In this document: piece by piece, positions 17,293-20,259 of the stretch | How the letters are laid out: the number at the start of each line of letters is the position of its first letter | Numbering within the stretch: the first letter of the stretch is position 1 | Source: Chloropicon primus | Taxonomy: Eukaryota | Assembly: GCA_023205875.1 (NCBI GenBank) | Contig: CP060755.1 | Location: 992,001-1,056,000, forward strand | Direction of reading: 5' to 3' | DNA: 64,000 bases | Position numbers and translations under genes: made by a program | The notes under the pieces: model-generated | Database searches by the model: none | What the model was told of the DNA's origin: nothing | Seen by the model: the letters and a program-made list of their open reading frames with translations, nothing else

Positions 17293-18402
17293 ATGGCAGT
17301 CAACCGAGACGACACAACAATGAAGGAGGAATATCTTTGCCTCGGCTTGATGAGTGGAACCTCGTTGGATGGCGTCGACCTCTGCCTCGCTCGTTTCAGG
17401 CCTGGATCGTGGGAGGACTTTGAGATCGTCGAGGCGGAGACGAGGGGCTACCCCGATTCTTGGCGAGCGCGCCTCAAGGGAGCTTTTGAGGCCAGTGGTG
17501 GCGACTCCGAGGAGCTCGTCCAGTTGCACGAGGATTACGGGACCTATCTTGGAAAGCTCGTCAAAAGCTTCCTGAGCGACAGGGGTGTCGATGGGGTGGA
17601 CCTGATTGCCTCTCACGGGCACACGGTGCACCACCGGCCCGACCTTGGTCTGACGCGACAAGTGGGTAGCGGGAAAGCGATCTGCGAGGAGACTGGGGTC
17701 ACGGTGGTGTCCAATTTCAGGGAGCAGGACGTCAAGTTGGGGGGGCAGGGGGCTCCCCTCGTCCCGATTGGCGACGAGCTCCTGTTCAAGGGCTACGAGG
17801 TGTGCTTGAACCTCGGGGGCATTGCTAACCTTTCGTTCTCGTCCGAAGGCAAGAGACTGGCGTTCGACATTGTCCCTGTGAATCTGGTCCTCAACCACTA
17901 CGCCGTCTCCAAGCTCGGCCTTCCCTACGACGACGGTGGCAGCACGGCGAGAGAGGGCGACCTCGTCCCAGCTCTGCTGGACGTGCTGAACGCCCTCGAG
18001 TTTTATGACAAGGCCTTGGGACCGAAATCGTTGGGATACGAGTTTGTGGTGGACACGATCTTCCCGCTCCTCGAGAACTCCGGGGTGTCGAGCACGGCGG
18101 ACGTCCTGCGCACGTTCACGGAGCACGCGGCTTGCCAGATTGCGAAGACGCTCAAGGGCACGGGAAAGTCCAGGGTGCTCGTTACGGGCGGCGGGGCTTA
18201 CAACACCTTCCTCGTGGAGCGGATCAGGACCTTGAGTGGTTTCGACGAGGTCTGCGTTCCTGACCCCGAGATTGTCGAGTTCAAGGAGGCCCTCATCTTT
18301 GGCCTCTTGGGCGTCCTCAGGCTCGAGGGGATCAACAACTGCCTGTCCAGCGTCACGGGAGCGCAGAGAGACCACTGCAGCGGCGACTTGCACCAAAAAT
18401 GA
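17293..18402 (+). CDS. anmK: Anhydro-N-acetylmuramic acid kinase, Bacteroidetes-type
   Basis: GLMSGTSLDGVD, SHGHTVHH, DVKLGGQGAPLVPIGD, NLGGIAN, AFDIVPVN, YDDGG, PKSLG, TGGGAYN, FKEALIFGLLGVLR, NCLSSVTGA. Confidence 0.93.
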   Translation: MAVNRDDTTMKEEYLCLGLMSGTSLDGVDLCLARFRPGSWEDFEIVEAETRGYPDSWRARLKGAFEASGGDSEELVQLHEDYGTYLGKLVKSFLSDRGVDGVDLIASHGHTVHHRPDLGLTRQVGSGKAICEETGVTVVSNFREQDVKLGGQGAPLVPIGDELLFKGYEVCLNLGGIANLSFSSEGKRLAFDIVPVNLVLNHYAVSKLGLPYDDGGSTAREGDLVPALLDVLNALEFYDKALGPKSLGYEFVVDTIFPLLENSGVSSTADVLRTFTEHAACQIAKTLKGTGKSRVLVTGGGAYNTFLVERIRTLSGFDEVCVPDPEIVEFKEALIFGLLGVLRLEGINNCLSSVTGAQRDHCSGDLHQK

Positions 18403-18471
18403 GCGCTTGCCTTCAAAACAGCCGAGACCCGTGTTGCCAGTTGTTATATAGAGATAGATTATGGCTCCGTC

Positions 18472-18804
18472 TTACTCGAGAAGCTCCGCCCCGCTCTGCT
18501 CCTCTTCTTCTTCAGAAGGGACGGCGGCTTTTGCTTTGCCCGTTCCCGTTCCCTTCTTCATGGCCCGGAGTCTGAGCCTGATCGGACCCTTGAAACCCCT
18601 CGGGTCGTCGACCACCTTGCCCTTCTGTAGGATCTCCAGTCGACCCTCCTCGACCAGGTCTCGCGCGACTCGCCGCGTCAACTCCATCAGCGGCCTCCAG
18701 TTCCGAGGCCGAACCCTCCTGGGTATCTCCGACGGTCAGCACGTCTTCCTCAACCCCCTCTCCTCCAACACCTCCACCATCGCCTCCCGGATCAACGACT
18801 CCAT
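18472..18804 (-). CDS. DUF3253-family protein with in-frame TGA (18736-18738) at the conserved Cys; candidate selenoprotein
   Basis: Hand translation from ATG 18804: MESLIREAMVEVLEERGLRKTC*PSEIPRRVRPRNWRPLMELTRRVARDLVEEGRLEILQKGKVVDDPRGFKGPIRLRLR...*. Recalled family consensus R..KTICPSEVAR..WR.LM..R..G.I.I.QKG...GPIRLR. Confidence 0.8.
18493..18577 (-). other. Eukaryotic SECIS element (type II-like) embedded in the coding sequence
   Basis: AUGAA (18561-18557), GAAGGG-A-ACGG stem, GAA apical adenines, CG(G)GC/GCCG minihelix, CCGU-CCCUUC, UGAA (18514-18511). Lower helix GCUC/GAGC and CUCC/GGAG. Confidence 0.75.
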
Positions 18805-18856
18805 CCAGAGAACTTTTGGATAAGAGTGAGATCACCCCATCGTCATCGTCATCGCC

Positions 18857-20259
18857 ATGGCGCCGAGGCTTGGTGCTTGGTGCCGCGGGGGCGCGGGGGA
18901 GGCCTCGAGCTTGAAGCGGAGGGAGGTCAGAGACCTGGTTGCAACGTTGCCCCTCTCATCCAACACCTCCGGATCGAGAGAGGGGAGGAGGGTTTCCGCT
19001 GGGGCGTCGTCGTCGTCGTCGTCGAATCCATGGGACGCGTTTTTGAGGTTCTCGAGAGCGTCGGTGGCCGCACTCGCGATCCTGATCTCCGTCGAGTCCG
19101 GCCTCGACGACGTGGTTCTGGGCTCCCAGGCCTTGGCGACGAGCCTGCCCCCCTCGAGGAGCGCGGCGAGCTTGGCCGCGGAGGAGGACGCGGTTGTGAA
19201 CATTTTCAGGGAAAACACGCCAGCAGTTGTCAACATCACCAACCTGCAGCAAGTTCTCGCGCGGTCCGGGGGCTCGCTCGACATGACGGACGTTCCGGTG
19301 GGCACGGGGTCGGGGTTCGTTTGGGACAACGAGGGCCACGTCGTGACGAACTTCCACGTCATCAAAGGGGCCTCGATGGTGAAAGTGACACTGATCAACA
19401 AGGAAACGTTCGACGCTCGCGTGGTTGGCTACGACGACGACAAGGACATTGCAATCCTTAAAGTCGAGGGGGTGAAGCCCTCGGACCTCGTGCCCGTGAG
19501 ACTGGCGAGAAGTGACAAGCTCCTGGTGGGCCAGCAGGTCTACGCGATAGGGAATCCCTTCGGCCTGGACCACACGATGACTGGAGGCATCGTGTCTGGC
19601 CTGGGCAGGGTTATTCAGTCGCAATCGGGCAGGCCGATCCGGGGTGCCATCCAGACGGACGCGGCCATCAACCCGGGAAACAGCGGGGGGCCGCTGCTGA
19701 ATCGATACGGGCAGCTCATCGGCGTCAACACCGCGATCCTCGATCCTTCTGGAAAGGTGAGCTGGGCTACTGGGTGCTTGCTTCTGCAGGACTTCTGACT
19801 TCTGACTTCTCGCTCTTCCGTTTGTGTTTTGGCGTTACGAACCAAAAAAAGGGCGCCAACGTGGGCGTAGGCTTTGCCATCCCGGTCGACACCGTGAAGG
19901 GAATCGTGGACCAGATCATTAAGTACGGCCGGATCGTGAGGCCTTACCTGGGGATCACCCTGGCGCCGGACGGAGCCCTGGCTCAGCTCGGGAAGAAGGG
20001 CGTCCTGATCCTCGACGTTCCGGACAACTCCCCGGCGGCCGGGATCCTCCAGCCCACGTACCGGTCCTTCACGGGGATCGTCCTCGGCGACGTGATCACC
20101 GCTCTCAACGGCCACCCGATCGAGACGTCCGCGGACTTGTTCAGCGAGCTGGACGACCTTCGTGTGGGGGACTCGGTGACCCTGTCGTTGGAGAGGAACC
20201 AGGTCCAGGAGGAGGTCTCCGTGACGCTGGGCAGCAAGACGACGACCTTCGAGAGTTGA
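18857..20259 (+). CDS. Deg/HtrA serine protease with PDZ domain (plastid Deg1-like); intron 19757-19851
   Basis: GTGSGFVWD..HVVTNFHV, DIAIL, AIGNPFGLD, IQTDAAINPGNSGGPL, GFAIPVD, then PDZ. Bipartite transit-peptide-like N-terminus. Confidence 0.92.

Follow-up and report, generated by a model that had tools for sequence, protein, structure and literature searches.

The window, the whole 64,000-nucleotide stretch of Chloropicon primus DNA that was analysed, is gene-dense and eukaryotic, with genes for a MYST acetyltransferase, an adaptor mu subunit, a proteasome subunit and spatacsin. Between a convergent and a divergent neighbour lies a short minus-strand gene with an in-frame UGA at the conserved cysteine of its family, and to judge from its sequence the product is likely a winged-helix selenoprotein of 110 residues. 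The genes and coding features of the locus are as follows.

17293..18402, plus strand: AnmK-family kinase, convergent neighbour, with an ordinary TGA stop (profile match).
18472..18804, minus strand: single-exon open reading frame, 110 aa with the UGA taken as selenocysteine, Sec (frame reading; jointless contigs).
18568..18795, minus strand: DUF3253 (PF11625) winged-helix domain, residues 4-79 (profile; pLDDT; match to 2NS0).
18736..18738, minus strand: in-frame TGA, codon 23, predicted Sec at the nearly invariant Cys of C-P-S-E (homologue alignment; contigs X3 and X5).
18857..19798, plus strand: chloroplast Deg1-like protease, divergent neighbour, the frame given over its protease domain (best PDB match chloroplast Deg1).

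The divergent ATGs of this gene and the Deg1-like gene are separated by 52 nt (18804-18857), which suggests a shared bidirectional promoter. Contigs from sequencing runs of other studies break between the two genes: those of the Deg1-like gene begin at 18870 and 18842 and those of this gene end at 18806 and 18783, which fits separate transcripts. Four further ATGs in the frame of this gene lie upstream at 18858-18832 (minus strand), where an in-frame TGA at 18834-18832 ends the reading. These ATGs run antisense to the Deg1-like gene over its start and 5' region, and because they lie past the contig end at 18806 they are probably off this mRNA. All four runs compared (X3, X5, X6 and X7) have a 3-nt insertion at 19004 relative to the window, in a short repeat; this is an allele or assembly difference in the N-terminal region of the Deg1-like protein. 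On the other side, AnmK (anhydro-N-acetylmuramic acid kinase) is found here in a eukaryote, and its sequence cluster occurs in collections of eukaryotes. Its relatives match at 62-69%, after which the best named matches among those listed are Bacteroidota at 50-55%, and on this sequence evidence the gene is possibly a bacterial acquisition.

The first-pass annotation had the reading frame run from an ATG at 18804 through one TGA, with Met40 at 18687 as the start given in the track of open reading frames, and frame reading confirmed this. On the minus strand, ATG 18804, TGA 18738-18736 and TAA 18474-18472 share one frame, a further in-frame start ahead of the UGA is Met9 at 18780, and the read-through product contains T-C-[TGA]-P-S-E-I-P-R. 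The codons ahead of the UGA look coding; 22 of 22 end in G or C, the corresponding GC3 being 0.79-0.81 in the neighbours and 0.62 in the tail. Global reassignment of UGA was ruled out, since TGA is an ordinary stop in five of the ten long window frames checked, AnmK included, and Trp and Cys codons are normal there; therefore no changed genetic code applies at codon 23. With the UGA read through, positions 3-80 of the 81 in the PF11625 profile align to residues 4-79 (E 1.1e-23) at 83.6 bits, compared with a curated cut-off of 22.1, which bears out the proposal that the domain is intact on both sides of the TGA.

Four runs were compared over the gene: X3 and X5 cross the UGA, X6 crosses the SECIS candidate described below and not the UGA, and X7 crosses neither. 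The X3 contig (study P2) spans 17900-18806 with one letter different from the window and the X5 contig (study P3) spans 17900-18783 with two, none of them at the TGA and neither contig with a joint (both runs being RNA by guess only). One of the X5 differences corresponds to E52K, as in the database protein P0002. It is highly improbable that the true product is a 71-residue frame from Met40 behind a 22-codon upstream frame, or that the UGA comes from misassembly or is removed by splicing. The databases do carry the 71-residue version starting at 18687 (P0002 and P0025), yet such a protein would miss helices 1-2 and the C-P-S-E of the compact fold. Assembly error and splicing, both foreseen in the first-pass annotation, are opposed by the agreement of two other studies' contigs on an unchanged TGA without a joint.

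The placement of the UGA at the conserved cysteine of DUF3253 was upheld by the homologues. Among 171 aligned homologues the UGA column holds Cys in 165, a gap in four and another residue in two, and C-P-S/T is present in 105 of 106 further homologues. The named green-lineage relatives Chlamydomonas sp. UWO241, Astrephomene, Ceratodon, Monoraphidium and Apatococcus all have Cys at this column. The earlier proposal of a Sec forming a C-U dyad stood in its first part, the Sec reading being supported by the Cys/UGA alignment, the SECIS candidate and a bacterial UGA form; the dyad is not conserved, since among the 171 homologues position 22 has 73 Ile and 39 Cys, and the bacterial form reads I-U. 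The column counts thus make the dyad incidental and put the UGA on the one conserved Cys of the family. C23, P24, S25, R29, W36, R37, M40, R44, Q60, G62, G73 and R76 are nearly invariant. The family is large (1,303 clusters at 50% identity), and nine DUF3253-like loci (L047-L051, L079, L081, L087 and L104) are without an exact C-P-S/T; several of these keep the Cys (C-P-G, C-A-G, C-S-G, C-P-A), and L047 and L104 have none.

The gene models of the closest relatives, P0003 (82%) and P0013 (76%), both begin at a Met that follows the motif. Such starts are what a stop at the motif would produce, but introns or contig ends could give them too. One 82%-identical environmental contig ends about 1 nt short of the UGA codon, and four low-share environmental runs reach neither the UGA nor the SECIS candidate. 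Low-share environmental runs with related sequence are mostly marine metagenomes, and a metagenome scan gave at least four loci, all of the bacterial type with TGC. In a FastTree tree of 275 sequences the algal gene falls together with P0003, P0013, Astrephomene and P0016 (support 0.85-0.90), on 84 columns that are too few to prove independent origins.

The hairpin past the UGA resembles a SECIS, the RNA element for Sec insertion, of the eukaryotic type, and lies inside the coding sequence. Its parts and the flanking RNA features are given below.

18684..18735, minus strand: stable structure directly after the UGA (-26.3 kcal/mol, z -2.80; this stability is reached by 2 of 200 shuffles).
18493..18577, minus strand: eukaryote-type (type II-like) SECIS candidate, wholly in the coding sequence, codons 76-104 (pattern scan, folding).
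18558..18561, minus strand: 5' AUGA of the SECIS core, its UGA out of frame and its AUG being Met82 (folding).
18543..18544, minus strand: unpaired AA, 13 nt past the AUGA, followed by C and not a purine (consensus comparison).
18511..18514, minus strand: UGAA, 3' side of the core; the 10-bp helix II that it closes contains one bulged A (folding).
18412..18471, minus strand: probably a short 3' UTR, in which no SECIS pattern occurs (one X6 contig ends at 18412, a weak hint).

The first-pass annotation had placed a SECIS-like hairpin about 175 nt downstream. Counted from the UGA this hairpin is real (AUGA at 18561, score 9.5); what had gone unstated is that it lies upstream of the TAA, within the frame, the element ending at least 18 nt before the stop codon and specifying the final residues of the domain together with a low-confidence tail. 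This differs from the usual position in the 3' UTR. From its outer pair (18577-18493) the element is composed of helix I, the core, helix II, the AA, a mini-stem of 3-4 bp and the 3' UGAA. Both strands of the window were scanned with a pattern of core, 11-13 nt, AA and GA, scored by helix II pairing, and the top-scoring site of both strands was the AUGA at 18561, at 9.5 by a score set after the element had been seen (post hoc); the next site, under a relaxed core, reached 8.0. Among 150 order-5 Markov shuffles, scores this high arose at a rate of 0.033 per 128 kb, or 1.6e-4 per 600 nt past the UGA. When residues 71-110 were recoded synonymously 20,000 times, just 0.17% of the versions retained the score.

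The spacings of 13 and 29 nt and the energies of -18.1 kcal/mol (upper stem) and -30.6 kcal/mol (whole element) are within the limits of SECISearch as quoted in PMC1802603 and PMC2375036. The AA spacing is at the upper end of the published range of 10-13 nt, and the AA is followed here by C (AAC), most elements having a purine at that position (AAR). Compared with shuffles, the upper stem has a z of -2.65 and the whole 93-nt element a z of -1.39. Scans with Rfam models gave no SECIS family at E<=10 and only weak chance matches. The 3' UTR is about 60 nt long if the X6 contig end is taken as a weak hint of its limit, and the 76 nt behind the stop are less stably folded than their shuffles (z +1.57). 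Within 600 nt the only other SECIS candidate is an AUGA hairpin at 18296, about 175 nt past the TAA and antisense within AnmK; it was rejected with a score of 2.5 against 9.5 and a z of -1.17. The second-best score of the window (8.0) belongs to a site at 1274-1220 (minus strand) that starts at the TGA stop of a UDP-glucose pyrophosphorylase-like frame and is probably a chance occurrence. A tRNA search of the 64-kb window found none.

The tail that carries the hairpin is shared in frame by P0003, with three changes in residues 82-100 compared with eight in residues 40-81, and Cys-type relatives stop soon past the domain or carry unrelated tails. By single-base routes, the three tail changes of P0003 hit the core-closing pair, the apical loop and a G-C pair that becomes G-U, and helix II stays paired. 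Judged from the protein, these changes would show compatibility with the hairpin and not covariation.

A recent pseudogene or loss-of-function allele, in which TGC or TGT became TGA by a nonsense change and the hairpin is a coincidence, is very improbable. Cys and UGA are one base apart, every named green-lineage homologue with the motif has Cys, and the contigs confirming the TGA are 99%+ identical to the window, as expected of near-identical strains. However, the best SECIS candidate of the window lies on the same strand 175 nt past the codon, at the low chance expectation given above, both halves of the domain are intact, and the models of the 82% and 76% relatives start after the motif. 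The same codon is also TGA in a Sec-using bacterium. Still less probable is read-through of the stop with insertion of Cys, Trp or Arg, without a SECIS or Sec, through a UGA-C context and the structure behind the codon. UGA-C is a leaky stop context, and here a C follows the UGA and a stable structure comes after it. Read-through leaves unexplained the SECIS-shaped tail, its low GC3 and its sensitivity to synonymous recoding, as well as the bacterial case with a bSECIS-like loop.

That bacterial case was found with a strict UGA-motif pattern, which would recover 85 of 163 Cys homologues, run over 185,579 prokaryote genomes. Among the 29 stretches matched, one is a DUF3253 gene (L012, E 1.2e-29), in a Verrucomicrobia metagenome-assembled genome (G001). 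It reads T-I-[TGA]-P-S-E, with the TGA at the same Cys and Ile at the dyad position. The genome has selA, selB, selD and tRNA-Sec over the cut-offs, and UGA-containing fdh and Rdx genes. In L012 a 6-bp stem bearing a GGUCG loop follows the UGA at 20 nt, the fdh gene of the same genome has GGUCU at 18 nt, and a comparable G-loop stem was found in two of 47 genes with a Cys codon. In this single genome L012 thus combines UGA at a Cys, a candidate bSECIS G-loop within 16-37 nt downstream, and selA/B/C/D. Its minimum-energy fold favours a different upper stem.

In the tree, L012 lies among the bacterial Cys forms and is only the 87th nearest of 274 sequences to the algal gene, a distance that, over 84 columns, suggests two independent gains of Sec. 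A chance nonsense change in L012 is also possible because only one genome with the UGA form was found. Searches for the DUF3253 family gave matches in 14 of 301, 22 of 81, 0 of 5, 18 of 201, 13 of 201, 0 of 251, 3 of 300 and 2 of 201 genomes, the first two sets (301 and 81 genomes) overlapping. The 251 genomes without DUF3253 were from the phylum of a Desulfuromonadaceae genome. In these searches TGA inside DUF3253 was seen in G001 only; TAG was present in three weak matches and TAA in one. DNA relatives of L012 were not found in 40 other genomes, and viral contigs gave no relatives among 52 stretches and no match to the UGA pattern. In G001, the UGA-form DUF3253 gene (L042/L039, on G001:C103) does not lie in a photolyase cluster; it sits immediately upstream of a translational GTPase frame, which we take to be TypA-like, and the two are divergent. 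A Rdx/SelW-like gene of this genome (L109, G001:C31:44862-45068) has two in-frame TGAs, which form a U-x-x-U motif.

The algal gene has a viral parallel. In fowlpox virus GPx4 a eukaryote-type SECIS with the quartet and AA likewise lies in the open reading frame past the UGA and encodes C-terminal residues (PMC1802603); the algal gene differs in being cellular, chromosomal and of another family. According to the available portions of that report, a coding-region SECIS works at reduced efficiency in mammalian cells, fowlpox GPx4 is the one natural Sec-encoding case alongside a fossil canarypox element with none in human, and such use was judged apparently unique to viral selenoproteins (PMC1802603; Mix, Lobanov, Gladyshev). 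As far as the accessible text of later sources goes, the literature on coding-region SECIS elements from 2008 onward offers only a partial overlap in Lokiarchaeota (PMC4989117; PMC8704476; PMC7539508). The Lokiarchaeal element is eukaryote-like, archaeal, and overlaps the end of the coding sequence in part, whereas the algal element is wholly within it (PMC4989117).

The number of selenoproteins in green algae varies, some having none or a handful and others over 20 (PMC7539508). The algal selenoproteomes, in the portions available, share with this gene the UGA at a conserved Cys and a type II-like SECIS of the AUGA-AA-GA kind (PMC2375036; PMC7539508; PMC6627142). DUF3253 is absent from the algal selenoprotein families in the accessible texts, and the main texts of 2019 and 2020 do not contain "DUF" at all (PMC6627142; PMC7539508). 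Three hypothetical selenoproteins of Ostreococcus have sequences unrelated to DUF3253. By their accessible descriptions, the 2007 pipeline dropped candidates with a coding-region SECIS (Lobanov, PMC2375036) and the 2019 pipeline looked only past stop codons (Liang, PMC6627142). On the prokaryotic side, L012 fits the bSECIS consensus given with the 119-family inventory, with a 5-nt loop starting GG and a 6-bp stem 20 nt from the UGA; DUF3253 is in none of the eight mentions of "DUF" in the available text of that inventory (PMC13188914), nor is it in the 2022 list of prokaryotic selenoproteins. The terms "winged" and "helix-turn-helix" are absent from the accessible text of two prokaryotic inventories. 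All annotated DUF3253 members seen have Cys where this gene has UGA. The names DUF3253, PF11625 and RHA04536 occur in no paper of the openly searchable literature, and no paper listed for 2NS0 deals with this protein to judge by its title. Most listed selenoproteins are thioredoxin-like or other oxidoreductases. The statement in the first-pass annotation that DUF3253 is not known as a described selenoprotein family therefore agrees with the searchable lists and papers, and the gene is probably a new selenoprotein family member whose SECIS is unusually placed.

On the sequence evidence assembled here, with a probability of roughly 0.85, the UGA of this gene would be decoded as Sec with the aid of the SECIS candidate in its own frame. 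By analogy with the known eukaryotic pathway, SBP2 would bind the kink-turn core of the hairpin and recruit eEFSec with Sec-tRNA to a ribosome paused at codon 23. The stable structure directly behind the UGA possibly slows the ribosome there, and is possibly a helper element of the Sec-redefinition type. While translating the tail the ribosome would melt the same hairpin, which would need to refold before the next round; because of this need the efficiency of Sec insertion is probably low, like that of a SECIS placed in a coding region in mammalian cells. Loss of an ancestral stop, or formation of a SECIS upstream of the stop, is the likely origin of the tail, and its RNA structure is likely what keeps the tail in place.

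The AlphaFold model of the protein is a winged helix with helices at residues 2-16, 26-31 and 37-52 and strands at 21-22, 56-60 and 76-79; pLDDT is 95-98 over residues 1-80 and 57-69 after residue 80. The model places residue 23 past strand 1 and ahead of the first residues of helix 2, and conserved Arg residues are modelled on the recognition helix and the wing. Judged by sequence, the nearly invariant residues are consistent with a nucleic-acid- or anion-binding surface. The structure 2NS0 (Rhodococcus RHA04536) belongs to DUF3253 as well and shares the fold (E 3.2e-15; Z 14.6, rmsd 1.4 with 82 residues aligned). The next-best fold matches are Z-alpha domains (ADAR1, ZBP1, PKZ; 1QBJ with Z 9.3, rmsd 1.9, 64 aligned), at 11-19% identity and little above MarR-type and other winged helices (Z 8.5 and lower). 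The Asn/Tyr/Trp set is the Z-DNA-binding signature of Z-alpha domains, and in a comparison at the level of columns it is missing from the conserved columns of DUF3253. NCBIfam has no family for this protein. The automatic name "putative S-adenosylmethionine tRNA ribosyltransferase" on one Atlas cluster was not adopted; an Atlas search with a Cys homologue gave only DUF3253 clusters.

The neighbourhood of bacterial members was scanned over 126 flanking frames at 43 loci, near-duplicates left out, the loci being partly kin. Photolyase-family genes are beside nine of the 43 loci in three phyla, and flavin amine-oxidase-family genes beside seven. HhH-GPD glycosylase, Fpg glycosylase and DinB polymerase genes occur at one locus each, and DUF3253 is fused to DUF2256 (Cys-rich), DUF4385 and HemD. 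No photolyase was found among the scanned frames of the algal window. From the modelled fold and these bacterial neighbours, a tentative proposal, for which the odds are somewhat short of even, is that Sec23 could act as a selenolate redox switch that senses photo-oxidative stress and alters nucleic-acid binding in a light or UV-damage response. Given Sec, a different function is rather doubtful: a nucleophile, catalytic or sacrificial, that acts on damaged nucleic acid, or a metal ligand, in place of a redox switch. A nucleophile would go with the single loci of HhH-GPD, Fpg and DinB repair neighbours and has an analogue in methylated-DNA-protein-cysteine methyltransferase (MDP), a listed selenoprotein, although no alkyltransferase is among the sequence matches or top fold matches listed. 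The fusions to Cys-rich DUF2256 would suit a metal ligand; a self-contained metal site is disfavoured because the single conserved Cys of the domain is too few.

Reading the algal and bacterial cases together, it is fairly probable as one joint proposition that DUF3253 is a new selenoprotein family in which Sec was gained independently in a green alga and in Verrucomicrobia, each with the SECIS type of its own domain of life; that the algal SECIS works from inside the open reading frame and represents a hidden algal class missed by standard searches; and that the conserved Cys of this photolyase-linked winged-helix family is redox-reactive. If true, each ribosome would melt its own recoding signal in a natural cellular gene. 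A coding-region SECIS in a natural nuclear gene would also bear on an old question, whether the 3' UTR position is needed or just more efficient. Compact algal genomes may hide more genes of this kind, because published pipelines filter out or skip coding-region SECIS elements and one of them reports algal selenoproteins for which it detected no SECIS. Sec forms usually mark redox-active or catalytic Cys residues, and the Sec form would be the first functional handle on the widespread, uncharacterised DUF3253 family.
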